64,000 bases of DNA from Peribolospora baueri (taxonomy: Eukaryota). The notes under the pieces were generated by a model. It saw only the letters and a list, made by a program, of their open reading frames with translations. It made no database searches and was not told where the DNA came from. Positions 1 through 21,977 of the stretch are shown here, one piece after another (positions within the stretch are counted from its first letter, which is position 1; each line of letters opens with the position of its first letter). The DNA lies in assembly GCA_029717555.1 (NCBI GenBank), contig JAMDHS010000028.1, positions 62,001-126,000 of the forward strand, read 5' to 3'. The translations under genes were made by a program, and so were the position numbers.

Positions 1-402
1 AGCCGGGCGGCGATCCGGGAGGGGATCAAGTACGACTCGGAGGACGACAAGGCGATCGAGCAGTGGGTGGAGCAGCACATCGAGACGACGTGGCACTGCC
101 TGGGGACGTGCTCGATGGCGCCCAAGGAGGGGAGCAAGGTGACCAAGTACGGCGGCGTGCTCGACCCGCGTCTCAACGTGCACGGGACACGGCGGCTCAA
201 GGTGGCCGACCTATCGGTGTGCCCGGACAACGTAGGTTGCAACACGTACTCGACCGCTCTGCTCATCGGCGAGAAGGCGGCGGTGCTGATCGCCGAGGAC
301 CTGGGCTACTCGGGCGAGGCGCTGAGGATGGACGTGCCGCCGCTCGAGACGCACGAGTGGCCCAACTTGAACGCGGGCCCGGCGCCTTACACGAGGGGGT
401 GA
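1..402 (+). CDS. AOX: Alcohol (methanol) oxidase, GMC oxidoreductase family; 3' end only, gene starts before the window
   Basis: Frame 1 reads YDSEDDKAIEQWVEQHIETTWHCLGTCSMAPKEG...GGVLDPRLNVHGTRRLKVADLSVCPDNVGCNTYSTALLIGEKAA, the AOX C-terminal catalytic His/Asn region; stop at 400-402. Confidence 0.93.
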   Translation, partial: SRAAIREGIKYDSEDDKAIEQWVEQHIETTWHCLGTCSMAPKEGSKVTKYGGVLDPRLNVHGTRRLKVADLSVCPDNVGCNTYSTALLIGEKAAVLIAEDLGYSGEALRMDVPPLETHEWPNLNAGPAPYTRG

Positions 403-1468: not shown

Positions 1469-2776
1469 ATGCGCATCACCTCCGCCGGACTCCTCGCCCT
1501 CCTCGGCGTCTCCGCCGCCTCCGCCTCCCTCTTCTCCCACCACGCCGACAACGACGTGGCCAAGAGGAGCCGTCACAACGAGCTCGCCAAGAGGGCCGAC
1601 AACCAGATCGCCAAGAGGGGCGCCTTTAACGGACAGGGTGAGTATGCCCGGGGCGAGGAATATTGCGGTTGGACGGGCAAGCGCGGGTGGACGGACGGAC
1701 GGGTCGGTGGACCAGCGGTGGAGAGTTAGCGAAGACGAGGCAGTGCATGGCCTGAGTTGGAAGCCGGCCGACGCTCGTTCCCTGATCGTGCATATCGTGT
1801 TGGCGTGGATACCAAAAAAAGAGAAGAAGGCTGACCTCCCCATTCCCCGGGTGCCCGCTTCTCGTCCTCGGCTCTGCCTCGACTCCCACAGCCACCTGTG
1901 AGTGTGACCCTCCGCGACGCTGTCTCGCACGCTCTTGTGCCTCTTCGTCCGTACAGATGTCGGCTCATCCTCTCCCCTCCGTTCTCCCTTCTCCTCTCCA
2001 GTCTTCAGCGTCGGTCTCGGCGCTTGTGGAAAGTGGAACAGCGACAAGGACTACATTGTCGCTCTCAACGTCCCCCAGGTGAGCGTTCGTCTTGCTCGCG
2101 CCCCTTCTTCGCGCACCTGACGGCAAACGGCGGAGAGACTTCGATATACGACGATGAACGGCGTGGACGCTGATCCTCGCCTCACTTCCCCCTTCTTCTC
2201 CCTAGTACGGCGACACGGGCGTACTCTCTTGGTTCTGCTTCAAGTCCATCACCATCGAGTACAATGGCAAGCAGCACGAGGCCACCATCATGGATGCCTG
2301 CCCTGGCTGCGCCCACGGCGTGAGTGTTCTTTCTCTCAATTTGGTGGAAGTCGGCTCGTGCGGCCGCGCTGATCATCTATCCCTTCGTTTCCCTCCGTTC
2401 GTCACAGAGCCTGGACATGTCGCCCGCTCTGTTCCAGTTCTTTGCCCCCTCGTCGCAGGGCGTGTTCCAGATGACCTGGTGGCTCAACGACGGCTCTGGC
2501 AGCGGCCAGAGCTCCTCGTCGAGCCAGCACTACACCATCAGCTACAGCTCGGCCTCGAACAAGGCCAGCCCGACGTCGACTCACTGGACCTCTAGCTCCT
2601 CCACCTCCACCTCCGCCACGCCCACGCAGACGGGCAAGAAGATCTGCAAGAACAAGAAGAGGGGCGTCCAGAAGAGGAAGATCGCTCTTCGCGCTCAGAA
2701 CGCCAAGAGGGCCGGACACGGCAAGCCCCGTGTCGCCGCCGCCGCGAGGGACTTTGTGGAGCAAGAGGCCAAGTGA
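1469..2776 (+). CDS. Secreted expansin-like / RlpA-type double-psi beta-barrel (DPBB, loosenin-like) protein, ~244 aa, 5 exons
   Basis: Exons 1469-1637, 1892-1897, 2002-2078, 2206-2319, 2408-2776 splice in frame. Product: signal peptide MRITSAGLLALLGVSAASA, three KR sites, then GQATFFSVGLGACG...DYIVALN...CFKSITIEYNGK...ATIMDACPGC...SLDMSPALFQFF...MTWW, an S/T linker and a basic tail. Confidence 0.9.
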
Positions 2777-3603
2777 ATGGCCGTTGATGGGGGATGAGGT
2801 CTATCCGGCAGTCGACGCTCGACGTTCGGTGACGAGGACGATTCGGTTCGGTATCGTTCGGTCTGAGCAGTGCCGGCGTGCACTCCTCCTTCCCATCTCA
2901 CCTTCTCCGCTCCTCCCCTCCTCTCCCCGCCGCGTCTCTTCTTCCTTTGACTTGTACGCCCATCGTCGGCCCGCCCGTCTTTCCTCGTCCCTCGCCTCCC
3001 TCGTCGCTGACGTGGGGGGAAACGACCAGCCCGTCGATTTTACCCACTTGCTTCCTCTTCTCTTCCCAGCCTACGCCTTCTCCACCTTTGCTTGCCCGCC
3101 TACCCTACCCTCCCCTCCCATTTCGCGACAAATTGGGCTTATCCTTCCCGTCCTTCCTTCCGTCGCCGGCTCTACCCGATCGCCCGTTGATCGATCAACG
3201 AATGGTCCATCTCTCGTGGACGATCTCTTCCTCGCCTCCCCCTTCTCTCACATCGGTGTTTATTAGTTTCGGCGCCCCGTTTGTTTGTCATCCTTCTTCT
3301 TGCCCGGAATGACATGCCCCCGTTTCCTTCGTCGGGGTTTGGGCCACCACTTTTCCGTTCGCCTCCTGTCAGTCGGCGATATTCTACGCGAGTGCTCGTG
3401 GCGGATCCCGTGTGGCAGAGTCGAGTGTCTGCGGAGGGCGCTCGCTAGTGGTGTCGATCGTATCCAGTTTCGGCCTTTTGAGCGCCAAGCTCATGCACGC
3501 ACGCACGCCAAAGTGCCGTGCCGTGCGTGGGCATGCATGGCGTCGTGCTGCCGCGAGGTCGCTCGCAGCCACGTACATACGAACGAACATACATGTACGC
3601 GTC

Positions 3604-3626
3604 CACACACACACACACACACACAC
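3604..3626. repeat. (CA)n microsatellite
   Basis: cacacacacacacacacacacac. Confidence 0.9.
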
Positions 3627-4036
3627 GTCCTTACATGCTACACTGTATGCTACACCATACCAGTCAGGCGGACGCTGAGTCCAGACGGGGCCACGCCGGG
3701 TTCCAACTCGACCTCGGTACCACGGCTAGACTAGACGGTGGTCTGGCTCTTCCCATCTTCCTCTTCCAATGTCCGGGGGAGAGGGAGAGAAGAAAGCGAG
3801 GGGTGAAAAAAGGTCATTGGCGGAGGAAAGATGGGCGGTCGCCCACGACGATATCTACATATATATATATAAGAAAAAAGGGATTTACGACTTATGCGCG
3901 GCGTACCCCCACCCGAACCGAGTGCGTACCTGTCGCGCTGGGAGATGGGGAGATGGGCCGCGGTAGCATACATACATACAAGTGAGTGAGCCAAAAGGAG
4001 AGTGTGGTAGAAGGAAAGACAGGGAGGATGCGTGCG

Positions 4037-5954
4037 TTAGCCGACGCTGACGGGCGTGCAGCCGGTCTGGATGAGGCCATTCTCCGCATCTGCTTGGCAG
4101 CACACCGCGTTGGCTTTGCACGAGTCCGCCAGGGCGAGACCGAAAACGGCGCTGATTGGGTCGCACTCGAGGCCGATGCTGGATCGCACGCGAAAGAGGG
4201 GTGGGGGCCGTGTGACGAAGCAAGGGGGTATCAGCAAGATCGTGTCAGGTTTTCCTGGGACCGACTACGTCGGTCTTCGACGGTGACGGAGAAGCTCACC
4301 TTCCGATGAGCTCGTCGATGGAACCGACGAGCGCCAGAGCGAGCTTATCCGACGTGTCGTGAATCTGCGCGACAGGAACGGGAGCAGAGATACGTGTTTG
4401 GCATGGACACAACCCCACCTAGCAGCATAACCGCTAGCGCCGCATTCACTCACGATTTGGCTGCAACAATACGCAGCACCGACGGAGCATTGGTTTCGTT
4501 TCGTGTCCGGAGTATGCCAGGCCGTGGAGTTGTCACTCGGATAAGCTGTGGTATGAATGGGCTTACCGACGGTGGAGGTGGACGTGGGTGGCTGCTGAGC
4601 CGTCAAAGCGAGAGACGAGGAACAAGGCTGGCCCGGGGTAACAAAAGCCGCTGCGTTGCTGGTAGTCGGATAAGCCGAAGTAGTCGGATAAGCCGACGAT
4701 GGCGACGACGGCGACGACGGAATGGCCGACAAAGTCGAGTCCGAAACATTCGGCCTGATCGAAGACACTCCATCTTTGGTTGTCTTTGGGTACGCATGCG
4801 CCGACGACGGCGACGCTGAGCTCGACATGTTCACCGCGACGGAAGCGGGCGCGTTACTGGCCGTAACCGAGGGGCTAGCAGAGGGCGACGGCATTGTTAG
4901 GTTGGGTGCGCCTGTGAATAATGACCGATTTAAAAGGACCAACCGATCGATGAGAAGTCAACGGCAGGAGGCAGAAGAGCGAGCGACGGACGCACGTTCG
5001 CCGTCCTGGCTGACCGAGTTGTTGTTCACGTCCCCTCCTCCATGGTTTTGAGATGGAACGGGCGGCGGCGAACGGTGACCTGGTGAAGAATGGCCGAGGG
5101 AAGGGAGGAGATTGCGCGATGAGGGAAAAGAGCACGACCCCGGGTTCCGGATAAGCAACACACCTTGGTTCGGACTCGGATTCTTCGCCGTGAGGTGAGC
5201 TGGCCGAAGCAGAGCCGAATGACAGAGGGACGAACCGCAACGGCGATATCGTGAGCATCTGCTGTTCGTGGACGATGACTATATGCCCCCTGAAGAGCCC
5301 CTTAGCTCACACTGCTCTCCGTGACCGCCAGTGTGCTGAAGCGGAGGAACGTGATGCAATCCTAGCAAAGAACATGGAGAAAAGCGGATGAGTAGGAGCA
5401 GAAGTGCTACCGCACCAGAGACGAGTCCCACCCTTGTTCTTGGAATCAGGTTTCTTCTTGCTGCACTTCTTTCCCCTGCGAGCAACATGGACGAGATCGT
5501 GCTGAGACCCTTGGTGCACAGCGGACCGTAAGTCGGGCGAGGGGTTGAGTGGGCCGTCGTGGGCCTGCCGCATCGCGCCCGGCGGACGGAAGTTGGAAGA
5601 AGGGATATGAGGCGTGAAGCGAACGGTGCCGCCGGCACCGCCGCCGCCGCCACGGCTGGATGAGTCCGTGATGGTCTGACCGGAGCCGTTCCAACTTTTG
5701 TTGCCGCCACCAGATCCGAGGACTCCGAGGTCGCCGACGTAGCCACCGCCGTGCAGCACACCAGCGTGCCGATGGGGAGCCGCCAAGGCCGGACCGGAAC
5801 AAGAAAGGAAAACGAGGGTGAGTAGGGGGGAAAGGGCCGCGATCTGGAACAAATCAAAGATGGGGAGGGAGATGGGAAACAGAGAAAAGAAACTTATCAG
5901 TGGTAGCGAAGGATGGAGGACAGAAGAACGACAAAACAAATAACCCACCTGCAT
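4037..5954 (-). CDS. Class I hydrophobin with long G/S/P/T-rich N-terminal extension (hydrophobin A), ~417 aa, 8 exons
   Basis: Exons 5954-5949, 5843-5432, 5361-5311, 5199-5164, 5079-4996, 4911-4454, 4364-4300, 4178-4037 are all phase-compatible. Signal MQIAALSPLLTLVFLSCSGPALA. C-terminal KR|NQCSVGAAYCC...IGLECDPISAVFGLALADSCKANAVCCQADAENGLIQTGCTPVSVG* has 8 Cys spaced C-x6-CC-x29-C-x14-C-x5-CC-x12-C. Confidence 0.85.
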
Positions 5955-7309
5955 GCCGTAAGACTTCGTCGGTTGGTACGGAACGCGGAGTAATAAATAT
6001 GACAAGTAAAGGACGTGCTTGGAGGGCCGCGACGAGACGAACGAGACGAGAGAAAGAGATGACCGAGGAAGGAAAAGAGAACGATGAGCGACTTCCTGGC
6101 CCGCCTTTAAGGGCTAGGACGACCAGGGTCAAGGTACGTCCGTGTGGATCCCGAAGCCGAAGCCAAAGACGAGCTTCGAAGAAGAGAACGCGCCCAGTCT
6201 AGACGCGCTTCGCGTCTTCGTAATGTGAGCTTGCGTGACAGGCGTAAGGACGGACCCGACGACGAGGCAGCAATGGATGGCTTGAGAGGTCCTGAGGCGC
6301 AGGGAGGCGGTCCCAAGGATAGGAACGGAGCGAGCCGAGAGAGAAACATGGGCAGACGGAAACCGAAGCTCGTCCGACCACCGCACAGGCCAAGCTCTGA
6401 AAGGGAGAACGAACTGAGCTACGAGCGACGGTGTAGTCTCGCCGTCGCGCCTAGCAGATGGCGGAGCGGAAGCTGGAAAACCTCACCTCAGAACTTTACC
6501 CGCCTTCCAATTATCTGTTACGAGAAGGGGAAAGAGACGAAAGCAGATAACCGCAGCGGAGCCCTCCATAGCGAGGAAAGACGACAGTGAGGAGGTAAGT
6601 TGGACCTGGTATATGAAAGAGGCGGACGGTCGAGCCCAAAACTTATACAAGGGACAGAAGCTAGTGAAGATAGGTTGGCGGTGGGTCGTCTCCAGGATCG
6701 TGGGCTTACGACAGCCGCCTTATACCACGTCGCAATCCCCCTTTTGCACAATCGTCCCATTCAGAGACATCCGAGAATCGAACGTGAGGGAAAGAAGTGG
6801 ACGACAGCTAGTTAGTCGCTGTCACTCAGGGCCGCTCCTAGTGGGCGATTCGCAGAAGAACGAGTGCACAACTCGTAGTGTCTCTGCAAGGAATGAAGCG
6901 GGCGGCGGCGAAGACAGCGAACAGACCTGGACTTAAGCGCGCGGACCCTCGCCTCTGCGCACCCCCCGTGCATCTGTAAGACGTCGCGTGAGAAGCGGAG
7001 GTGAGGGAACGGCTAGAACGTGAGAGTACGGACTATGGACGATGCGACGCAGGGCCCATTCTCCTGAAAGGGGGGGGGCATCGACGGCGGGCGTGGGGCA
7101 GGTTCGCTCGGTCCAGCGGCTGCGGCGACGACGGCCCACTTGGCGCGACCGCAGCGGCTGATATCTGTCGAGTCTCGAGACGAGGCAGGCGATCCCTCGA
7201 CGACAGACGCATAGGATCAAGCCAACGTACAGGCAGACGTCGAGTCGATAAATGCAGCTCAAATAGGAGGCTCATTCGCGCGAAGACGTGGAGGGCGCGC
7301 TCGGGTTTC

Positions 7310-8916
7310 CTATTCATGTCGATCGACGGCTGACAATAGATACCTCAGGTCTCGAGCGTAGGCGCACGGACACGCGGGCTCCGTTCGGACCATTCGCACA
7401 TACGACCGGACCCCGGGCTTCAGCCAGACGATCAAGCGGTGGAGGCGGTGTTCCATCGACGGCGATGATTTGGCCGTTGGTGTACTGGGAAGTGGCAAGG
7501 AAGAGGATGGCGCCGGCCTGGAAGCGAAAGGAAGAAGGTGATCGCGAGTCAGGTTCCGTGCTCGGGAGTCTGTCTTAGCAGAAAGGAGGGACTGGGTCCA
7601 GAAATACGGATGCTCGACTTCCCTCCTCTCCCCGTCGGGGCCCCCCGGAAAGCTCGGCCGCTCAGCTCACCGTATCCCGATCATCGCCTGGCCTCCCAGC
7701 GGGGATACCCATCTCCATGCCTTCCAAGGTATTCTTGTTATCCGGCCCGGCTTTCTTTGTCATCTTAGAGGGGAAGACGCCCGGGGCAATGGCGTTGATG
7801 CGGAGCTTGATGCGCGCCGAGTGAGACTCGTGAGGTGGTTGGCGGCCTGATGGGGATACAGACGGAGAGGGAGGGATGGACGAAGAGATCAGATTGACCT
7901 TCGGTGGGGGGGCCCTCGAGATGCGTCGCGTTCGACGTGGCCGCGGCCTACTTACCGCTTTGGAAGCATTGTAGGCAGTGTTGCTGAGCGTGGAGGCGGA
8001 GCGAGCGGAGGAAGTTTCAGCCATCACTGCATGGACTCAAGCAGCTCAATGACCTAAGTAGACTCGCTGACTTGGCTGGCTTTGACGATGCCGGAAATGC
8101 TAGTCGTGTTGATGACCGTGCTACACCACCCCTGGCAGCTCTTGGTGCCCTTTTCGAGCAGGGGCAAAAAGGCCATGGTAGATAAGAAGATGCTCGATAT
8201 GTTCACATCAAACAGGGACGACCAGTCCTGGTAATTCTCGTTGTCGAAGTGTATCTTGCTCAGCTCCTCAGCTGAGAGCTCGCTCCAGGACCTGTCCGAG
8301 GTACTCTTGGGGCCGGAAATTCCGGCGCTGCTGTGGGAAAGCAAGTCCGGCGGAGGGCCAAGGAAAGGAGACGGGAGGGTGCGGGTGAGCGCATGTGCCG
8401 AGGATGGCCGAACGCACAAGGTGCCCTCACTTTACGAGGATGTGCAACCGCCCCTCTCGCCGCTCCATCTCACGGACGAGGTTCTTAATAGATTCCTTGC
8501 TTGTCACATCTCCTTGAAGGCTGCCCATCGCGTGGTGGGCAGACCGACGTAAACCCCGGATCCCTGGTCGTTGTCCAAAGCAGAGAAATGCTCACGGGAC
8601 CATCTCGCCCTTGATGTGTGGACCATCGTGCGTATTTGTGGCGTTCTCGAGGATTCCCTGACGACGAGACGCAATGTCTGAACGATTACGATGAACAGCA
8701 GTCGAAGCGGTTGTTAATACCGCCCGCAGCACCAAGTATGAGTACGAGGCTCGCCGAAACGAGAGTGGTTCTTAACTCACATACTTTGGCGCCGTTGGCA
8801 GCGAGCGCCTGGACCTGCATGAGACCGATGCCGGTGCCACCACCGGTGACGAGGGCAATGAGACCGGAGAGGTTGAAAAGAGCGGAGGCGGTGAGATCGT
8901 ATGTGGGAGCTCCCAT
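7310..8916 (-). pseudogene. Short-chain dehydrogenase/reductase (SDR), probably disrupted
   Basis: Motifs ALVTGGGTGIG, LQGDVTSK, ILVNSAG, AYNASKA (YxxxK), RINAIAPGVFPS, NGQIIAVDG. Splicing at consensus sites leaves phase mismatches just before AYNASKA (~7980) and after AANHLT (~7820), and the C-terminus is atypical. Assembly indels cannot be excluded. Confidence 0.7.
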
Positions 8917-9459
8917 CGTTGGTCTGACTGCGCAAACGGAAAGAGAGCCACAAGTGGAGACGGCGTTAGAAACGAAGACGAGAGCGCGAGATCTTCCTCT
9001 TTATGAGGCAGGCTGGAGGAGGTGATTCAAGGAATTTGGGCCCAGGATCTCGTCTGCTTCCAATTCGGACTGGCCACTCATCGACCTGGCCTTCCTTGAA
9101 TCCTCACGATGATGACCTTCGAGAAGTATTTTGCGACCGCCGTCAGAGGCGATCCTCGATTGTCGCGATCGGCCCGATCGGATGTGCCATCGTGTGCTAT
9201 TGCGCTCTCCACACCTTCGTGGCCGACCACTTATCAAGTCGGCCACTATACTGTATCTCGTCTTACAAGTGGGTGTTCGCTCTCACACCTGCACAGGAGC
9301 TTGAAGAGGGTCTCCGCCACGGAATCGCTAACCTGCGCACCCGTCTCGTCGATCTTTGCGTTCGTTTCCTTGCTTAGCGGTCTTGAAGCTAGCTCTGCAA
9401 GCGTTTGGTGGCTCATATTATGTACATCTGGCAATCATCACAGTGAGCGGCTTCTAAGG

Positions 9460-10224
9460 ACAACACGCATCCTGAGTGGAGAGCCTATGGACGCCTTCTT
9501 CACTCGGATGACGGACTTGCGACAACCTCTGCGAAGCCGGAGGGACGTTGACCGACGAGGACTTTACGCAAATGCTCCTCGTGCGAATGCCGGACTCCTT
9601 CGAAGTCCACAATCTGGCGTTTCCACATGGAGACGCTACCCTCGTCCGATAAGTTTATGCACGACGTCAAGCAGATCGAGAAGGAGATGATGCAGAAGGC
9701 TGCAGGAAACCTCCGTCGTCGTCTGCTGAGACTGCGATGGGGGCCTCAACCCAGGAACAATTCAAGGGCAAGTGCCATCACTGCGGGAGGGTCGGGCAGA
9801 AGGTGGAATGCCGAACGGTGAAGAGGGAGGATGGCGATAAGAACGACGGGGCCGCCCTCGCTTGGACCCTTTCCGCCGTTGACGCGCAAGCCCACTTGGT
9901 CGCCGACGCCCAGAAGAACGACTGGGTCCTCGACAGCGGTGCCAGTAAGCACATGACCAACGACAAGTGGGGAGTACCATGCCTTCAGCACTCCTCACCG
10001 CGTCACCATGGGGAACAACGCGACCCTGGACGCCCCAGGCTCGGGCGTCGGTCACGTCGTCTTCCCTGACGGCAGCTCTGGATTGATCCGCGACATCCTC
10101 TATGTGCCAGGATTGGTCGTGAACCTTCTCTCGGTCCCTCAGCTGAACGAGCGCGGAGAGCCAGAAGGGAAAGGTGGTCACCAAAGGACGCCTTCGGAAT
10201 GGGCTCTTCGTGCTCAACTTCGCG
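9460..10224 (+). mobile_element. Degenerate Ty1/copia LTR retrotransposon fragment (gag C-terminus, zinc knuckle, aspartic protease)
   Basis: EPMDAFFTRMTDLR, KGKCHHCGRVGQKVEC (CCHC remnant), WVLDSGASKHMTND protease motif, ILYVPGLVVNLLSVPQL; several frameshifts. Confidence 0.88.
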
Positions 10225-11601
10225 CATCCAATTCGCTGTCACCCTCCGCCACCGCCGGCTCTGCCGTTTCTTGGGTGTTGAGTGCCTGTGCGGGTGGCAT
10301 TTCGTTGAGAGGAGCGAAGTCGAGAACGCAGAGCCCATTCCGAACGCGTCCTTTGGTGACCTCCTTCCCTTTTTTGCTTTTGATCTTGGCCTCCTCGTCA
10401 CGCGCCTCAACGATGAAGCCGCGCTTGGTCAGCTGAGGGACCGAAAGAAGGTTCGCGACCAGTCCTGGTACATAGAGGACGTACGATCCAGAGCTGCCGT
10501 CAGGGAAGACGAGGTGAACGACGCAAGAGCCTGGGGCGTTCAGAGTCGCGTTGTTGCCCATGGTGACGCGGTGAGGAGTGCTGAAGGCATTATACTCCCC
10601 AAACCACACTTACTAGCACCGCTGTCGAGCCGGCAATGATAAGAGATGGCTAGGGGATGATGCTCGGAAGGAAACGAGAAACGACGGGTGCCACCCACGT
10701 TCTTCTAAGCGTCGGCGACGAAGTGAGTTTGCGCGGCAACGGCGGAGAAAGTCCAAGCGAAGGCGGCCCGGTCGTTCTTTTCGCCTTCCTCCTTCCTCAG
10801 CGTTCGGCATTCGACCTTCTCGTGCCCAACCCTCCCGCAGTGATGGCACTTGCCCTTGAACTTTTGTTTGTTCTTGGGTTGAATCGCCATCATAGCAGTC
10901 TCCGCAGACGACGACGGAGGGTAGAGTCTCCATGTGAAAGCGCCAGACTGCTTTGTGAACTTCAAAGGAGGAGGGCGTCGCTCGAGGAGCATATAGGTGA
11001 AGTCCTCGTCAGTCAACGTCCCTCCTGCCTCGCGTCTCGGAGGTCCATCATGCGCCCGAAGAAGGCGTCCATAGACTCTTTCGGCTCCGGGTGCGTCTTT
11101 TCGAGCTCCGAACGCAAATTGAACCTAGTCTTAGACTTGCCCGCGTGAATGTGCTCCAGGTCTGTCCACAGTTGCTTAGCCGACCTTCTGACATTGATCT
11201 GGCTCAACTGTGTCCTTTCGAGCCTATCGATGATCGCCAGCCTGGCAGTAGCGAGAACCCGCCGAAGGGCTTCGTGCGCCTGGTCCAGTTCGATCCAGTT
11301 GGAGTAATAGCTAACTGCCTCCTCCATATCGATGACGGCCTCATTGGGGTCGATGAAGAACCAGAGCCCCTTCGACTCTAGGATGTTCGTCATCCTCCTT
11401 CTCCGATGTAGTTCGTGGAGCTCAACTTCTGAGCTCCCTGCCAAGAGACGGCGGCGTTGTCCTTGACGCCTTGACCATGTTCGCAATCTTGGCCTGCCTT
11501 CGGGACGGCTCACCCGACCCTAGCTTGGGTGCGTCTGGCTCGGAATCGCCTCTTTCCAACGGAGGCGTCCCGGCCCTTCTGCCACCTCTCGAAGTCGATT
11601 T

Positions 11602-11613
11602 GGGCTCATAACC
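11602..11613 (-). promoter_or_regulatory. Primer-binding site of the half-tRNA(iMet) (Hemivirus/copia) type
   Basis: Minus strand reads ...TCCAACA|GGTTATGAGCCC immediately after the LTR, close to the copia-type PBS GGTTATGGGCCC. Confidence 0.8.
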
Positions 11614-11801
11614 TGTTGGAACTAGCGGTGGATGGACGGAGGTCGATGCTATTGGTTCATAAGAGAAGAGAGCATACAAAAAGGAAACCGCAGAGGTAGA
11701 GGGAGACGGCAGTACTAGGCCGCAATGACAAGTACAGTTGCCTACATAATCATGTCCGCTTTCAGCCGTGTAACCACGGTGCTCGTTGCCGCCGATCAAC
11801 A
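11614..11801 (-). repeat. 5' LTR (188 bp) of the copia element
   Basis: TGTTG...CAACA terminal inverted repeat, directly followed by PBS and gag. Confidence 0.8.
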
Positions 11802-12321
11802 ATATACACGCATCACGTGATCTGGTCTACATCAGCAAGAGTAATTGCACAGGCGACGCGCCCGCTTAGGACGACGTGTTCAAGGCGACCAACACCTTCC
11901 CGCCTTTCCTTGCTTGGTCGGATGAGGTTCGAAATCAGTGCGAGCGCCTCTTCTTCTCAGTTGCGCGCTTAAACTAGACTAGACCAGACCACTTGTGGAC
12001 CAGCCGGTGGACACTGACGTGATCTAACGACGTGATATGACATGACATGGCTCACCGCTCACCGTCCTAATCTCTTTTTCGAGCAGCTCGTCCACTCTCG
12101 CCTAATTTCTCTCCACGCGGCGTCTACCAGCAGCCGCACAAAAAGGCGCTTGCCGCCTTTGTTGCTCTTCTCCCTTCTTCTCCTTCAACCGCCACCGCCA
12201 GCACTGAACCGCCCTCTCCTCCCTCCCTCCCTCTTCCAGCTCACTCTTTCCGTCGTCTTGACATCCTTGCACTCGTTTGTCCTTCCACACTCCGTTATTC
12301 TTCCGACACGCTTCCATCATC

Positions 12322-14213
12322 ATGAAGAGAAATGTGAGGTCAAGGGCGCTATTTTGTTATAGCCAAATGCGAACCAAGTCGGAGGGACAGCGAGCTGACT
12401 TACTCCTCGTCGTTCCTCGCCCTCTTCGGACCAGCTCTCACTCTTTCTCACCACCGCCGTCATCGTTCTATCCACCTTTATTAGTGCCGAGGTTGTCACT
12501 CCGGTCCCTTCCGCTGGCGTCGGCAACGGCGTCGGCAACGGCGTCGGCAATGGCGTCGGCAATGGCGTCGGCAATGGCGTCGATAGTGACTATATGCAAG
12601 GCATCTCATTTGGAGCTGCCAACGGTGTCGACCAGGGCCTCGGTCAGGGAGTCGAACAGGGCGTCGACCAGGGCGTCGAACAGAGCGTCGACCAGGGCGT
12701 AGCTACCGTTTCTCCCGACCCCGTCGATCCCGTCCCCGGCCCGTACGTCTCGGAGCAAGTTAAGAAGCCCTTGCTCGCCGATGTTCCCGCCCAACTCCCC
12801 CTCAAGGCTCTCTTGCCTGTCAAGCGCTCTTCTAGCGCACTCGGCAGGAGACAGACAATCTCCGGAGGAGAGCTTGCCTCCCTTCTCCACGACACTCCGC
12901 TCCAGGGGCTCGGTATTGCCGACGTCTCCCGCCGTCAGGACGCTGAGGGAGTCCTCACTGAGCTTCCGGCCGAACTAACATCCTTGCTCGACCAGAGGAC
13001 TTCCCGCCGCTTCTTGCGCCGTCAGTTAAGCGACCTCACCGGTGTTCTGGATGAGCTTCCCCTCAAGGGCCTCGTTCCTGGCTCCAAACGTCAGGCCGGC
13101 CCGCCTATCAGGGCCATGTCTCGTGATCAGTTCCCTGCCAAGGCGAGTAAATGCGCTTTCCTCTCACTGCTATTCTCTCTCGAGAGTCGGCCATTTTAGT
13201 CGCTCGCCTCCGCGCTCGCAAACTAGCATTCATCGAGAACCTCATATCTTCCTGCTTACCATTTCTTCCAGGACGAACTCTCCACCGTGAATCCCCCACA
13301 AGATGATTTCTTCCTTGCCCCTTCGAAGCGCCGTAGCCTCACCGGTCTAACCGGCGGTTTGCTGGGCAAAGTTGCGCCTGCTCAGAGGCCCATCCTCGCC
13401 GGCGTTCCCGCCGTCTCCGATTCGGCGCCCGCCCCTCCCGCCATTGGATCAGCCGACCTAAGCCCTGAGGCGAGCGCCGGACAGGACGTGATTCCGGCCG
13501 AACCTGATCAGAGCGGGCAGTGAGTACGCCGACGCCGTCTTTCAGATGTACGAAGAGAGCTTGAAACGCGGTTTCAATCCTGAAAACGTGGTCATATCGG
13601 CCATATGGCTATCTGGTTATATGCGAACGCTCTCCCCTTTCCGGCAGATGCTCCATCGGTAGCGCCCAGTGCTGCAACCACATAGTCTCCGACGCCAGTA
13701 GCAGGGCGTCCTACTCCCTCTTCGGCTCCCTGTCCGACGCCATCGGAAGGTAAGATTGAGTCCGCAAGCTTGTACGCACGGTGACTTTCTGGTCTCTCAC
13801 CCTGTGCTCCTGTGTCGGTAACGGTTCCGGTCTGTCACATGGAAATGACAGCCTCGGCCTTGAGTGTGTCCCCATTGCCGCCGTTCTCGGTGCCGCCATC
13901 TCCGACAACTGCAAGGCGACCGCGGTCTGGTGAGCACGAGCCCCTCTCTTCCCGGCAGTTCGGCTCTCGACCTCATCTCTAACTGTCCCGTTCACCCTTT
14001 GAACTTCAATCGCATGCTCAGCTGCCAGGGCGTGACGCAGAATGGCCTCGTGAGTCTCGTACCGTTCTTTGTGTCTTGCCGTGCGGTGGTCTCACGTTCC
14101 AAGCTTAGATGTCTGGACATCGGAAGGCCTTCTGACGCTGACCTTGGCACCTCTGCCGTACCTCCCTCATCTCACAGATCAACGTGGGCTGCACTCCTTT
14201 GAGCGGCCTCTGA
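12322..14213 (+). CDS. Secreted repetitive Kex2-processed protein with C-terminal class I hydrophobin (Hum3-like architecture; hydrophobin B), ~403 aa, 7 exons
   Basis: Exons 12322-12333, 12435-13142, 13272-13519, 13648-13749, 13852-13929, 14022-14049, 14178-14213. Signal MKRNLSLFLTTAVIVLSTFISA, (GVGN)x5, GVDQ/GVEQ repeats, several KR/RR-delimited Leu-rich peptides, then QCSIGSAQCC...LGLECVPIAAVLGAAISDNCKATAVCCQGVTQNGLINVGCTPLSGL*. Confidence 0.87.
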
Positions 14214-14528
14214 GCGTCCTCGAAGAAGCCTCGCGACGAGGGTGATAGCGACAGGGCAACGCAGCAAGTCAAAACGAATGGAAGGCAACTTGGTTGTTGA
14301 AAGACACGCGGCCCTGTCATCGAAACTCTCGTAAATATTCAGTTCCGCGTTTTCTCCCCTTTCGCCCTCCTGTTGATAGCCTCGCTCCCATTTCGGAGGC
14401 ATTCGGACGCCCTTGTAAGTAAGCCAGGTCGGCCCCATTCGCATCAAACTGAAGGTCTTGTACATGGGAGGACGTCACAGGACGAACGAAAGAGATATGT
14501 ATGAAGATGTGGTCGGGACTGGTATGAT

Positions 14529-16144
14529 TTAAAGCAAGCTGTCCATTTTGCTGGTCGTTGTGGACAGGCCACGATTGGATGCAAATGGACAGAGGCAAAG
14601 CATGGCCGGGTGGTCAGCGATCGCTCGGATGAAAGAGCCCAGCAGCAGCTGGGACGTCAGACTGGCGAGGCGAGGAAGAGAAGGACAACATGGACCTATG
14701 GCTCACCTCATGACGCACAACACCGCTGCGATGATCTCGAATTGGTCGTCGTTCCTTTCTCCCATCTCCGTCTTCACCGCCCTCGCCACCTCCGCCATGC
14801 TGGCTCCCATCCCCGCTCCTGCGAGGTCGCCCGCTGGATCCACCGTGCTGCCGGCGCCGACCTCGGTCCGGCCAGTGCCTGCAACTCGAGGAAACGGCCA
14901 CTGGCCGAACTCTGCGAGGAACTCGTCACACTTGGCGAAGGCTGCCTCTCGCGCCTCGTAGCTGAGGTGGGTGAGGGCGTTCTCGAGCACGTTGGCCGCA
15001 TAGCTTGCGCATACCATGCACAGCGCCCTCGTCACGCGGAACTGCACGCCAGGCCCTTCCTCCTTGTAGAACTGGCCGGGGTGTACCGCAGGGGATCGAG
15101 AGGTGAGAAGGGAGAGCGCTCGGCGAAGGACGGCATCTTTGTAGGAGGTATCCGAGACGGGGTGGGTGGCCATGTCGAAGAGGAGGAAGTTTCGCTTTTC
15201 TGTGCGCAGCACGCCCTTGTCCACCAAGCCCTTGGCGAGTCGCTCGCGAACCTGCTTGAGCTGATAGCCGATCTTCATCACGTTCCAAGTCTCGCCTGAG
15301 AGCGAGGTCCAGAGACCGCGTATGAGCACCTAGGAAAAGAGAACCGAGACGAAGGATGTCGTCACACCTCGCCGGGACTCACCACTCATGAGGTCGATCC
15401 AGCTGTTGACGCTCATCTTCTCGCTCATCTTCATCATCTTCAACGCCTCGTCAAGGATGATCTCGTTTGTATTGCGGTCGTCGATGACCTCGATCAGCCT
15501 GTCCTGGAGGGCGAATCGCCGTCGGGCGTTGTCCTTGACCATCCCGATCCTTCGACGTAAGGCGAGCTCAATGAGAATACAGCCGCGGAGTGTGTAGGAG
15601 ATGTTGTCGTTCCAGAAAGAGAGGTAGCCCTTTCCTCCGTCAGAACGGGACGGGGAAGACAGACGGGAAGGATGGCGACGATCGGAGCGAAGGACGGGTG
15701 AACAAGAGAAGGGTACCCAGGCACAGAGCGACCACGAGAGCATATCGCGGGAAGCGTCCTACTCACTTGCTTATCCTTAAGCCCAAGTAGCAGTACCTCC
15801 TCCATGAGCGTCAATTTGGGACTTTCTCTCGCCTCCCCTTCGTCGTTCAAGTCCCTAGGATCATACGCAACTTTCCGGCTCCCCGCGATCGCGCTCGTCC
15901 CACCACCTCTTGATCCTCCCGTCCCGTTCGCACCTGATCCACTGCCTAACCTGCTTCCGGGACGCGAGCCTCCGCCGGACCGGTCATTCAAGGAGCGAGA
16001 GGAGGAAGAGGGGGACATGTACGACGAAGGCGGCGTCGGAGTGCCGGGCACTGAAGAGACGTCATCGCTGACCATACCGCTCCCGGCGCCAGCGCCCCCA
16101 GCGCCCACTCTTCGCCGGGAGAGACCGCCGCCGCTGCTCGACAT
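14529..16144 (-). CDS. VPS74: Golgi phosphoprotein 3 / Vps74 (GPP34 family)
   Basis: N-terminal [98 protein letters not shown]; spliced end SKMDSLL*. Confidence 0.96.
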
Positions 16145-16675
16145 GGCGAAGGAAGGAGGGCAAAGGTGTGAGGTTTGAGATCGAGATTCGAGCTCGAAGG
16201 GGCAGAGAGAGGTCAGGACATGTGCAGGTCTTCCGAGGCGAGGGTGAATCCGCCTTCCCGCTACTAGGCGGCGCCGAAGCAACGCCTGTGCACGGGTAAC
16301 CCTAACTTGCTCTGTCTTGAGACAATGTTCTCCAAACAGCAAACCTCCCACTTGGCAGGCGACGATGAGAAGTCGATAAAGTCATCACACGCCCGTTACG
16401 AAGCCCTCTCAAGGCGGTATAACAGATAGAAAAGAAGCAAAATCGACGTTTCAAAGCCGGGGGGGTATTAGGTAAAGATGAGCTGGCTCCGATATTGACT
16501 TGACTACTGGGACTCCCTGACAGGCGGGCCCATTCGGGAGCGGCGAGCAAGGCTCGTAGAGAAAGCGACAGACAGAAAGGGTGTGGACTGAGGATAGGAA
16601 TTTGAGAATCTGATAGCGAGCAGTAGCTGCAAGGTGTGTTCCACGGCGAGCAAAACGCAACGGCCCTTGAGGGCT

Positions 16676-17937
16676 CTAGTTCTTCGCTTTGCGAAGCAGG
16701 GCCATCTCGGTATCCGAGACGAAGGGGCCCCAGAGCCACTCGGCCCACTCGGCTGGATCAGAGAAGAGAAAGAACGAGTCAATGTCATGACTCCTTGACT
16801 CGCTCAGGTATGGCCTTCACTCACATTGGCTCGGATTAGAAGCGTGCCTCATCTTGACCTTGAGGGTGCCTTGGCCCAAGTCGGCGAGCTGGCCGAAGGA
16901 GCCTTTGGTGAGGTCCACATGCTTGGAGCCTTGGGCACACCCGGCACAAGAGTCCACAACGCGAGTGAAAATGCTGGTAGGGAGAAAATTCGGGAGTCAA
17001 ATAGATTCCGCTGGGGCTCGGCAAATCGACGGGACGGGCCTCAGTGACGCGTACCACTTGTTGTTTTGGGGGTTGCAAAGCTCAAGGAACTCAAAGCTGA
17101 AAGGATGATTTGGGCGGCGGGGGATCAGAACAGCCGACTGCAGGTCGACGGAGGGTTAAAAGACAACTCACCACCACGACTTGCCCACCCATCCTTCCAG
17201 GGTGACGGCCGAGATGAAGCTCTGGTCGGTGGGAGTCCAGTTGACCTGGGGCCAGCAGCTAGCGAACCGGGCGAGATGAGACGAACAAAGGGGGTGAGTC
17301 GCATGCAAAGAAAATCTTCTGAGTTCGCCGAGCATACCTGGGGTTCTTGAGGTCGTTGCCCGAGTACCTGGCGCCGACAACCGGAGAAAGGGTCCACACC
17401 GTGTCAGAGAATGAGAACCTGGGGCAGACAGCCATTGGGAGGCCTGAACGAGCAGCGGAAAATCTCACCAAGTGATCTGGACGTCCTCCGCATCGTTCGG
17501 TTGGCCAAGCGCCTTGAGCTGCTTGCTCAGGTCCAAGGCCGACTGGCCACGACGCTGCTTGGAGTGGCGCTTAATGCCGGCGCCTGCCATTTCCTCGTGA
17601 CCGAGGGCACGGCGCTCGGCGTTGATCTTGGCTTGCGTCAGGTTAGAGTACTTGAAGTCTGGGTGGACGCGAGATGAACGCGGAATGAGGTGCCCCACGT
17701 AAGCAGGTCAAATCAAACACATGCCGCATACGCGGGGCGATTTGTCCGCAGTGAGCAGGCACACTCACCGGCGTCCCCGGCAGTGAAGTCCAGCCAGCCG
17801 TCCCTCTCGTTGAAGTCATACTCGCGCGAGTAAGCGTGGGCGACCGAGTAGTCGCGGCCCTCCGCCGAGACGAGGGTGGGCGCAAGGGCGGCCAGAGCGG
17901 GGAATAGAGCGATGAAGGCAGCGTTAACGCGGACCAT
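16676..17937 (-). CDS. Second secreted expansin-like / RlpA DPBB protein (different subfamily from the one at 1469-2776)
   Basis: Signal MVRVNAAFIALFPALAALAPTLVSA; spliced ITWYSGNDLKNPSCW...WTPTDQSFISAVTLEGW...CFEFLELCN...KCIFTRVVDSCAGCAQGSKHVDLTKGSFGQLADLGQGTLKVKMR...WAEWLWGP...AKN*. Confidence 0.85.
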
Positions 17938-19085: not shown

Positions 19086-21977
19086 ATGAAGCGTCGTCGG
19101 CAACCACCTGGTGACGACGGCGACAGCCCATCGACCTCCTCTGGCAGCAGTCTCACCGGCTCTCCACCTGCGTCTGAGGCGGAGAAGGGGCGCAGCGGGA
19201 GAAGGTCGCACAAGGCCGCGAGATTGGGTCTCTTCGAGCCTGGCACCAAGGTTCATGTTCTGGAGCAGAAACTGGGCTCGGAAGAGGCGGAGGAGCTCCG
19301 TAAGGTGGTGAGCATCCTGAGCGGGCGGCCGCCTGTCTGGTCCGAGACGCTGACGCGGACGACCACTCCCCGTCCGCTGTTGGCCCTGGTTTGGTCCTGC
19401 TCAGACCTCCTCTTCAGGCGGTAAGAACGTCAGCTTGGAGGAAGCAAGAGTCGTCTTGACCTGTATTCGAGCGCCGCTTCTTCTCCGGCGACATGTTCCC
19501 GAAGGTGTAGCGGTAAGCGGTGCCTCTGTTTGTTTTGCTCATTCACGCGTCTGACGGTGTGCCCCTCTCTCATCTCGCTCTCATTCAGGCTGGCAAGACC
19601 TTCCTCTCCACGCACTGGCTCCTCGATTCCACAGAAGAGCGCCGCCCGCTTCCCTACGACGACTACATTATTTCTTTCCCCTCTCCTTCAATGGCATCCG
19701 ACGCGGGGAGGAGGGATGAGGGCATCAAGGGTACAGAGGTGACGGGTAACGACGCCAGTACGCCTCTCACCACGCCACCTACCAGTCCACTCTATCGTTC
19801 TGCGCTCGTCAGCCCACCTGCTTCTCCCGTTGTTGGTCGCCACCTGAACGAGGACAGCACGTCTAGAGAAGCCATGGCGAGTCCTACTCAGGCTCCCGAA
19901 ACACAACTTTCTCCCATCTACCCTTCCGCCTCGTACCCGTACACAAATGGCAGCTACGCCTGTCAGCGATTCTCCCCTTTAGTATGCGTGAACCAAGGTC
20001 TAGTGGACGAGTTGGAGACGATCCGAAGGGAGAGGACGCTGAGCGGAAACGATAGGAGCGCGTTGAGCTATGCTAGGGCTTTGAGCGCCATCAAGGCGTA
20101 CCCGTACAAGTTGGAGAGCGGCAAGGAGGCGGCTGGCTTGAAGGGCGTGGGTGCAAAGGTGGAGATGCTCGTAAGTGTCACTCCTCACGCGTGCCGCCTT
20201 CCGGAAGACCACACTTTTAGCGTATGATCCGCTTGGTCTGCTTGGTGTGACGAGCTCAACGCGAGCTGGTTTTGCTCTTTTCTTCAGGTTGACGAATACC
20301 TCAAGACGGGGCGGATCGCCGAAGCAGGTACTTGCATTTTTGCCCCGTCTATGCCGAGATTGTTATCTTTTCCTCATCCTCGCACCCATTCGTTCATATC
20401 GTGCCGTCCTTTCTTTCATCAGAAAGCATCCGTGCCTCCCCGCGGATGTCGACCCTTTCCCTCTTCAACGAGCTATATGGCGTTGGTCCCCACACGGCTC
20501 GCAGGCTCTACGCGGCGGGCTGTCGCAGTCTCGAAGATGTCGTGACGAAGACAAAAGGTCTCGCCTTAGGGGAGAGCGTAAGGGAGTCTGTGAGCTTGTT
20601 GGATGAGTTTAGCAAGAAGTGAGTCCCACGATTCGTTCCATGGGCTTTCGAGGTGCTGAAAGCCCGTTCGAGATGACCTTTTTGGCGTAAGCTGTGTCCG
20701 TTTAGAGGGACGTCGTATTGAAACGTCTTCCCTCCGGGAATTTCGGGGTACATAGGATACCACGCCGAGAGGTCGAGTTTATCGGTACTCTCATCAAACA
20801 GCACCTGGACGAAATCGACCCTAGTAAGTCGTCGGACTCTACCCTTGCTGTCTGACCCGTCCTCGCCTTTTCGCCTGCTCTCCGCTATTCTGATATCCGT
20901 TACCGCTGATCCTCTCCTCGGGCAGGCTGCGACTACGTCATCACAGGAGGCTACCGACGTGGCAAACCGCAGAGCAACGATATCGACATCGTCATTTGGA
21001 GTAACGAGGGCTCCGAGAAAGGCCTGTGCGAGAAGTTGGTCAGAAAATTGAAGGAAGCCGGTGAGCGGGTGTCGTTTTTATTGCTCGAGCGCAAAGCGGG
21101 GCCACGCGACTGGGTGAGGGATGGGAGGGTTGACGGATCTGAGCTCTTCTTTGGTTGGGCCTGGCGCGACAGGTCTGGTCACGCACATCATTGGCATGAC
21201 GGCGGCGGCTAGCGAAAGGGATCCATCAGTGCCGCCGAGGCAAGGGTGGGTGGGTCTGGGGGTCTGCTTGTGCCTTACTTCTCCTTTCGTCCTCCGTCTT
21301 TGCTTCATTGCGCCGCGTCTCGTCTTTGATTCTCCACTCCGAGCAGCACTCGAATGGATTCCCTCGATAAGGCCTTCGTCGTCTTTCTCCCTCCTCGCTT
21401 GCCATCGACGGAGGAGGATCCCAACCCTCCCTCGCCCATTCACAGGCGCGTGGACCTCATTTTCGCCGACAAGAAGCGGAAGGCGTCAGCTATCATGGGC
21501 TGGACGGGGAGGTGAGGACTTTTTCCAGGGACGTTCCAAGTCGACCTGAGCTCCCGCGCTTCTCGGACGCCAGGCTGATCGTTTCAGATGCGGTCGCGTG
21601 TGCAATCGCCCTTGCAGCATGATGTTCGAGCGCGACCTCCGGCGCGTGGCTAACGAGCGGTGAGTCGCAATGCGACACATGTCATGGCGTCCTTCCTCGA
21701 GCCAGATAACGAGCAGCATGCTACAACAACCATGCTCACTTCACGCCGATCTTCGCGCGGACCAGCGGCTACAAGTTCGATTCTTCTTCCATCACTCGTC
21801 TGAAAGGTGAGCCCTGTCTGCACGTCGTCTTCGTTTGGCGCCCAGGTCGTTCATCGTAAGTCCGTCCGGTCCAACGACGCAGACAAGCGCGAAGTATTTT
21901 GCGAAACGGAAGAGGACATCTTTAAGCTCTTCGGGCTCGACTATATTCCACCGGTTCTTCGGAACGCGGATGCTTGA
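19086..21977 (+). CDS. X-family DNA polymerase (Pol mu / Pol4-like) with N-terminal BRCT-like region, multi-exon
   Basis: YACQRFSPLVCVNQGLVDELETI...SYARALSAIKAYP (8-kDa domain), LYGVGPHTA (HhH), TGGYRRGKPQSNDIDIVI, RRVDLIF, MGWTGSMMFERDLRR (GW motif of Pol mu/TdT type), EEDIFKLFGLDYIPPVLRNADA*. Confidence 0.9.

Follow-up and report, generated by a model that had tools for sequence, protein, structure and literature searches.

A mirror-ordered basidiomycete locus of two extended hydrophobins and two DPBB proteins: probably a composite

Organisation of the locus

The window analysed here is a 64,000-nucleotide stretch (G000:C208:62001-126000) of a 22.7-Mb fungal assembly, and near its left end four genes for predicted secreted proteins are arranged in mirror order about a palindrome of copia-type retrotransposon remnants. 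Two of the genes encode extended class I hydrophobins (hydrophobins A and B) and two encode proteins with a DPBB domain (DPBB1 and DPBB2). We read the locus, with a probability of roughly 0.6, as a composite in which the hydrophobin pair is old, the two DPBB genes are unrelated to each other and the transposon debris is younger. The part of most interest is hydrophobin B, a repeat-hydrophobin that resembles Hum3 in design but has unrelated repeats. The features, in window coordinates, are as follows.

1469 to 2776, plus strand: DPBB1, secreted loosenin-type protein of 244 residues with a single DPBB domain (spliced model; exons 1469-1637, 1892-1897, 2002-2078, 2206-2319, 2408-2776)
4037 to 5954, minus strand: hydrophobin A, 417 residues, C-terminal class I domain after a KR site (spliced model of eight exons: 5954-5949, 5843-5432, 5361-5311, 5199-5164, 5079-4996, 4911-4454, 4364-4300, 4178-4037)
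7440 to 8916, minus strand: short-chain dehydrogenase (SDR) pseudogene (weak adh_short match, E 4e-4; 3' end approximate)
9459 to 10228, plus strand: decayed copia-type fragment with gag end, zinc knuckle and protease region, without a long terminal repeat (LTR)
10229 to 10308, no strand: 80-nucleotide spacer at the palindrome centre, continuing the minus-strand copia element
10224 to 11801, minus strand: truncated copia-type element with gag and protease region (Retrotran_gag_2 and Pol_BBD above cut-off)
12322 to 14213, plus strand: hydrophobin B, 403 residues (spliced model; exons 12322-12333, 12435-13142, 13272-13519, 13648-13749, 13852-13929, 14022-14049, 14178-14213)
14529 to 16144, minus strand: VPS74/GOLPH3 housekeeping gene between hydrophobin B and DPBB2 (GPP34 above cut-off, two exons)
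16676 to 17937, minus strand: DPBB2, 247 residues, long N-terminal region (spliced model; exons 17937-17769, 17658-17469, 17367-17338, 17258-17172, 17096-17055, 16973-16825, 16752-16676)

Coordinates and spliced models confirm the inventory, order and orientation of genes set out in an earlier note on this DNA: DPBB1 (+), hydrophobin A (−), SDR (−), copia (+), copia (−), hydrophobin B (+), VPS74 (−) and DPBB2 (−). In the predicted models all four secreted genes splice to intact open frames with canonical donors and acceptors and one GC-AG intron in hydrophobin B. Each precursor starts with a hydrophobic segment, whose best 10-residue Kyte–Doolittle mean of 2.3–2.8 is like that of the four short hydrophobins (D–G) of the same genome; the secretion signal was judged by this hydropathy heuristic rather than by SignalP. 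With that heuristic, and with the dibasic sites read in the models, the earlier description of all four as precursors with a signal-peptide-like start and KR or RR sites stands.

Structure of the hydrophobins

The last exon of hydrophobin A matches PF01185 at 47.3 bits (cut-off 23) and the PDB hydrophobins 7S7S and 2NBH at 1e-7. The extension in front of the domain is first His/Gly-rich and then Ser/Thr/Pro-rich, with seven sequons and no repeats, and the protein has only two dibasic sites, one of them two residues before the first Cys. The sequence of hydrophobin A suggests a hydrophobin carried on a stalk that can be cleaved and is probably glycosylated. The first exon of its gene is two codons long, as in hydrophobins D–G, and the model is least certain at the three small exons in the middle. 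A word-indexed protein search with the last exon gave four candidates, none of which scored; HMMER finds relatives, so this was a failure of sensitivity.

Hydrophobin B is built of Gly-Val-Gly-Asn and Gly-Val-Asp/Glu-Gln repeats, Leu-rich units, a Pro/Ala linker and a class I domain. The Leu-rich units number four to five, are degenerate and 23–38 residues long, and are bounded by RR or KR, with Gln following four of the sites. The domain is split over short exons, one of which alone scores 15.4 bits for PF01185; a third long hydrophobin on the same contig, hydrophobin C, scores 53 bits. The Cys spacing of A and B is identical and of class I form (C-X6-CC-X29-C-X14-C-X5-CC-X12-C), and the class I motifs described for Tricholoma vaccinum are C-X6-CC-X32-C-X12..18-C-X5-CC-X12-C (PMC5147985). 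Class I membership of both also follows from the PF01185 or solved-structure match, for B by way of 68% identity to C. A profile of A, B and their relatives matches the solved basidiomycete hydrophobins 6E9M, 2NBH and 7S7S best, and the nearest named relatives of the two domains are from Acaromyces, Wallemia and Ustilago. At 417 and 403 residues, the precursors fall outside the small size (about 100 residues) used to recognise hydrophobins; the predicted C-terminal products after the last dibasic site have 82 (A) and 142 residues (B). Extended hydrophobins are already known (PMC13514795).

G000:C208:1-1022: hydrophobin C, its 5' end cut off where the contig begins; it lies about 74 kb from B and 61 kb upstream of the window

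Hydrophobin C is intronless in its sequenced part and carries near-perfect 92-residue repeats of Arg|Gln-delimited Gly/Leu units; it is a clearer Hum3-like precursor than B. The genome holds at least seven intact hydrophobins and one relic exon. GC-AG introns occur in three of the seven hydrophobin models (B at window 13143, F and G). At G000:C329:441530-441613 a lone hydrophobin exon like that of hydrophobin G, with a splice donor, stands amid retroelement-like frames and is a putative relic or captured fragment.

Hydrophobin B and the Hum3 design

Hum3 of Ustilago maydis has 17 amphipathic repeats of 31–36 residues before the hydrophobin (PMC4617103) and is described as a largely redundant chimera of repellent and hydrophobin (PMC13514795). 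Hydrophobins B and C share with it a predicted signal peptide, Arg-delimited Leu-rich units and a C-terminal class I hydrophobin. B has several repeats bounded by Kex2 motifs ahead of the domain, but these are degenerate and, at four to five units of 23–38 residues, fewer than the 17 of Hum3. The helical hydrophobic moments of the units (0.39–0.59, read without a control set) are no higher than those of other segments. No similarity is detectable between the B units and the N-termini of two other proteins, P0139 (an Ustilago sp. hydrophobin 3 whose record is poor in repeat sequence) and the related repeat hydrophobin P0130 (z −0.4 and −1.0), and the B domain lies outside the Ustilaginomycotina hydrophobin clade (96/93). 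B is not an orthologue of Hum3, with which neither its repeats (with the same reservation about the Hum3 record) nor the clade of its domain shows homology. By analogy, B may nevertheless work like Hum3. The comparison with Hum3/Rep1 made in the earlier note holds for B and fails for A, which has no Kex2-delimited repeats and only two dibasic sites. Judging from B and C, the combination of repeats and hydrophobin known from the smut Hum3 may have arisen more than once.

Relationships of the hydrophobins

The domains of B and C are 68% identical, those of A and B 54% and those of A and C 48%; at the DNA level the values are 74% (B–C) versus 65% (A–B). B and C form a clade with support of 89/91, and A, B and C fall on one side of a branch at 63/83. 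The trees used 10 of 27 hits and omit the top profile rows P0124 (2756 residues) and P0125 (a repeat protein without the hydrophobin Cys pattern). The question whether A and B are each other's closest paralogues, on which the earlier note had let its case depend, has a divided answer: identity and the best tree pair B with C, but an A+B clade is not rejected.

B and C also share a Gln-initiated Leu-rich unit (11 of 17 core residues, z 4.1, 0 of 300 shuffles). This link rests on the pairwise shuffle test, since the B repeat region, searched against its own genome, finds itself and one match at E 0.9. In the same kind of test the extension of A matches neither that of B (z 0.1) nor that of C, and an ESM Atlas search with the N-terminal exon of B gave no usable match. 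The only long hydrophobins among the seven are A, B and C, and a stretch of 76 kb on contig C208 holds all three. One phase-2 intron is common to A and B, and none of the four short forms D–G has it. Four-fold degenerate sites are identical at 14 of 22 positions between A and B and at 15 of 27 between B and C, both small counts; as the A–B value is below the 86% identity between the copia arms, the hydrophobin split appears to be older than the arms.

It is likely that the hydrophobin alone underwent an inverted duplication here long ago, because A, B and C group together, are the only long forms and lie on one contig, A and B share an intron position, and an A+B clade is not rejected. Two class I hydrophobins of T. 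vaccinum, hyd3 and hyd4, likewise stand head to head after a local inverted duplication, with 62% identity; they are 1.2 kb apart and share a promoter (PMC5147985). A and B differ from them in being separated by 6.4 kb that contain a pseudogene and relics of transposons, in being more diverged and in having long, unrelated extensions. An intronless retrocopy is reported in the same study (PMC5147985), and hydrophobin C seems to be one too, as far as it is sequenced.

The DPBB proteins

In DPBB1 the domain is preceded by three [VLI]AKR sites, which lie in a 24-nucleotide tandem repeat (1544-1619), and the protein also has a Ser/Thr linker and a basic tail. This tail (window 2630-2776) is strongly basic, with three more KR and an unpaired Cys, and is absent from the closest paralogue, the copy on C635 (71% identity); the paralogue on C35 is 58% identical, and its domain matches PDB entry 9CE9 at 3e-25. 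9CE9 is PcaLOOL12 of Phanerochaete (PMC12779228). DPBB2 is 61–64% identical to three mushroom proteins (from Vararia, Lentinula and Macrolepiota), which places it, judging by these matches, in a conserved basidiomycete DPBB subfamily, of which it is the sole member found in a search of its own genome. Its homologue P0001 is nearest to domain 1 of EXLX1 (7WVR, 3e-7) and falls in an ESM Atlas cluster of 135 Basidiomycota members; no functional study of P0001 was found in the literature.

DPBB1 and DPBB2 are 24% identical over the domain, and a joint clade was rejected (p-AU 1.5e-34), which bears out the caution of the earlier note that they look like different subfamilies. PF03330 matches are weak: 29.8 bits for P0001 (cut-off 28.8), 19.3 for a DPBB2 exon and none for a DPBB1 exon. 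The expansin C-terminal domain (CBM63) has no Pfam match in the DPBB exons scanned. Both proteins have the DPBB domain with conserved Asp motifs (by alignment) and the predicted secretion by which loosenins are recognised. Known loosenins (Bjerkandera Loos1, PcaLOOL12) are like the DPBB1 family in having a single secreted DPBB domain, no CBM63 and the conserved Asp motifs. DPBB1 differs from them by its triple-KR pro-region, Ser/Thr linker and basic tail, and DPBB2 is of another subfamily.

The genome holds at least nine DPBB genes; mushroom genomes have 9–27 expansin-like genes, a family termed highly volatile (PMC10282164). One of the DPBB genes (G000:C35:1500-2693) apparently carries a further DPBB-like domain, which is degenerate and lies close to the C-terminus (profile E 4e-5).

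Kex2-type sites

Among 120 fungal effectors, roughly 30% have a putative Kex2 pro-domain, and an aliphatic residue at P4 is the preferred form of the site (PMC8528282). The three sites of DPBB1 have an aliphatic P4; those of DPBB2 are weaker. KR or RR stands before the domain in all five DPBB paralogues modelled elsewhere (those on C59 and C640 were outside this set) and occurs in three of the five other hydrophobins, so that eight of ten unlinked paralogues carry it. The dibasic sites, which had been presented as a feature of this locus, are a family-wide trait and no mark of it.

Mirror symmetry and the copia palindrome

The palindrome is centred near 10268, within the spacer 10229-10308. 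The inverted symmetry proposed about 10.27 kb exists in gene order and at this centre and is not confirmed for the sequence as a whole. When the left half was compared with the right by blastn, DNA homology was limited to the copia arms (9459-11102) and 84 nucleotides of hydrophobin coding sequence at 73%. Distances from the centre to the gene starts are unequal, 4314 versus 2054 nucleotides for the hydrophobins and 8799 versus 7669 for the DPBB genes, and SDR and VPS74 have no mirror partners. Among the DPBB genes, the hydrophobins and the copia arms alike, mirror partners are not closest paralogues, and no arm-to-arm DNA homology is found beyond coding motifs; both are contrary to an inverted segmental duplication. 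The SDR gene was rightly called a pseudogene: exons 1–4 are open (189 residues), and exons 5 (7983-7956) and 6 (7846-7671) are out of frame.

The minus-strand copia element has one LTR (11801-11614, TG...CA) and an adjoining primer-binding-site-like word, which we take to be a copia-type primer site. With LTR, this word, gag and protease it has the marks of a Ty1/copia element; the plus-strand copy is without an LTR. Both copies end before the integrase, with no complete pol and no second LTR, and are relics. They are like other Ty1/copia relics in the TG...CA LTR, the Pfam matches in gag and protease region and the many solo LTRs, and unlike them in that both copies are truncated before integrase and reverse transcriptase and joined tail to tail as an imperfect palindrome. 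The family is dispersed: of 62 genome matches at least 47 fall on the LTR, and C23 and C329 hold longer copies. In an alignment of 661 ungapped columns the right arm shares 94% identity with the C23 copy and 86% with the left arm, and the left arm shares 86% with either of these two. In a 129-nucleotide piece, identity of the left arm is 88% with the C329 copy versus 80% with the right arm. The arms are best read as two putative copies of different age joined tail to tail. A local fold-back of one copy was considered and is not favoured because each arm is closer to an outside copy; with so few copies, unequal rates or later overwriting are possible. The central palindrome carries no information on the flanking genes.

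The copies show some further rearrangements. The C329 copy (G000:C329:254477-254773) ends in its own inverted repeat of 305 nucleotides at 85%, and the C23 copy holds an inverted repeat of 61 nucleotides at 95%. The left arm and the C23 copy share a 60-nucleotide gap relative to the right arm. Inside the minus-strand arm, 71 nucleotides (10627-10697) are 100% identical to G000:C186:85521-85591, possibly a recent templated insertion.

Linkage and upstream sequences

In about 0.5 Mb of flanks at the other loci, no DPBB gene is near any of five intact hydrophobin loci and no hydrophobin is near any of seven DPBB genes, the flanks being cut by contig ends at hydrophobin C, C118, C35, C59 and C640. 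By tblastn and profile search, 0 of 80 metagenome VPS74 loci have a hydrophobin or DPBB match; these loci are partly redundant and all from distant fungi (VPS74 exon 45–76% identical), and 24 of them extend 3 kb or more upstream, as do 24 downstream. No description of a linked hydrophobin–expansin cluster was found in the open-access literature (Creative Commons PubMed Central and bioRxiv).

No neighbouring DPBB and hydrophobin genes share a promoter: DPBB1 and A converge, and B and DPBB2 converge across VPS74. Shared upstream 6–8-mers are not in excess, as 0.18–1.0 of 715 quartets drawn from 13 upstream regions reach or pass the observed sharing, in a comparison of low power. One short upstream element was followed through the genome.

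6098 to 6109, minus strand: TATA-like element followed by GGCGGGCC, 156 nucleotides upstream of hydrophobin A

It also stands upstream of the unlinked hydrophobin G (G000:C656:28268) and of a DPBB gene (G000:C644:52830), so that at three of its eight genome sites, each on a different contig, it precedes a hydrophobin gene (two sites) or a DPBB gene (one site) by 115–217 nucleotides. It is absent upstream of DPBB1, hydrophobin B and DPBB2. As the mark of a regulon it was rejected: eight sites equal the reversed control, and at five of the eight no secreted gene follows. With a relaxed pattern there were 10 sites versus 7 in the control, and none of its nine new sites precedes an evident secreted gene.

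Origin and possible function of the locus

In the composite origin that we favour, an extended class I hydrophobin would have duplicated locally long ago to give the head-to-head pair A and B, and hydrophobin C would later have arisen from the B line, 74 kb from B. The SDR gene between A and B would have decayed, and there two copies from a dispersed copia family, unequal in age, would have become joined tail to tail. The old, conserved, single-copy DPBB2 and DPBB1, from a dispersed loosenin-type family, would have reached the flanks independently. Each gene most likely acts alone, as its own family does. From what is known of these families, the precursors would be secreted and trimmed by Kex2, the hydrophobin domains would assemble into a water-repellent surface layer, and the DPBB domains would bind and loosen chitin or plant-wall polysaccharide. 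B may also release short Leu-rich peptides in the manner of Ustilago Hum3/Rep1, and A could release its own domain from a glycosylated low-complexity stalk. As found, the locus adds new members to known families, and it cautions that a mirror gene order need not imply an inverted duplication.

Several points weigh against a composite. The clade of A, B and C is weakly supported at 63/83, the tree tests do not reject a clade of A and B (p-AU 0.11 and 0.32), and the counts of four-fold sites are small. For two DPBB genes to fall in the seven slots around a given hydrophobin pair, p is 2–3e-5, a post hoc value under a uniform null that assumes 7 hydrophobins, 9 DPBB genes and 7,000–9,000 genes, ignores the clustering of secreted genes and takes a family pair chosen after it was seen, from a very large scan; because of this value the independence of the DPBB arrivals is only assumed. 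The truncated flanks at other loci and the restriction of the synteny comparison to distant fungi count in the same direction.

Coincidence throughout, with A and B arriving separately and no local duplication, is rather unlikely. C, and not A, is the closest paralogue of B, the N-terminal extensions of A and B cannot be aligned and a single domain intron is shared, all of which would fit separate arrivals; against these stand the grouping of A, B and C, the exact Cys spacing, the long extensions, the position of all three within 76 kb and the shared intron position.

We consider it improbable that the locus is a selected, co-regulated surface cluster, in which unrelated hydrophobin and loosenin genes were gathered and kept since they are switched on together, be it in aerial growth, at the spore surface or on contact with a host surface. 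The low naive chance of co-location favours it, as do the presence of three of seven hydrophobins, namely all the long ones, on one contig, the intact state of the four genes while those between A and B decayed, and the developmental regulation of both families in mushrooms (PMC10282164). The TATA-like element with GGCGGGCC is common to A, hydrophobin G and one DPBB gene, but within the locus it marks one gene of four, was picked post hoc and has five other sites without a secreted gene. Promoters are not shared, upstream word sharing is ordinary, linkage is seen neither at other loci nor at the VPS74 loci, and the pair of families was picked from the scan after the event. Also improbable is a more specific proposal, a selected and co-expressed surface-building cluster in an early-diverging basidiomycete, in which two loosenin-type proteins would soften wall or substrate and Kex2-processed hydrophobins would coat it, one of them an independently invented Hum3-like protein with repellent repeat peptides, the genes having been recruited singly. 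If co-expression and conserved linkage were true, this would be a physical hydrophobin–loosenin cluster that ties wall loosening to surface coating genetically.

That a single inverted duplication centred near 10.27 kb made both DPBB–hydrophobin halves, as the exactly mirrored order and strands, the palindrome at the centre and the fold-back also present in the C329 copy could suggest, is scarcely credible, given that the DPBB families split before this lineage left the mushroom line, that DNA homology stops at the copia arms, which are closer to different outside copies, and that distances are unequal and SDR and VPS74 unpaired. Of the module born by inverted duplication that the earlier note envisaged, the DPBB pair is refuted by the tree and the copia pair is unsupported; an old duplication of the hydrophobin alone is the likely remainder.

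Genomic setting

In its best segment, Dna2 on contig C208 is 50–55% identical to proteins from each of four classes, Agaricomycetes, Tremellomycetes, Microbotryomycetes and Ustilaginomycetes. In a FastTree phylogeny with 23 of 120 hits it branches deep, inside none of the four basidiomycete classes, and its place is unsupported (0.32 and 0.0). No close relative of the source genome is among the 120 best Dna2 hits. The host appears from these comparisons to be an intron-rich, deep-branching basidiomycete, and at least seven hydrophobins in so deep a lineage may interest specialists. All comparative tests are limited because the collections searched hold no close relative; look-alike windows were sought in other genomes and none was found. 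The locus is flanked on the left by the 3' end of a GMC oxidoreductase gene (window 1-402), presumably alcohol-oxidase-like, and on the right by a helix-hairpin-helix (Pol X-like) gene (window 19517-21500).

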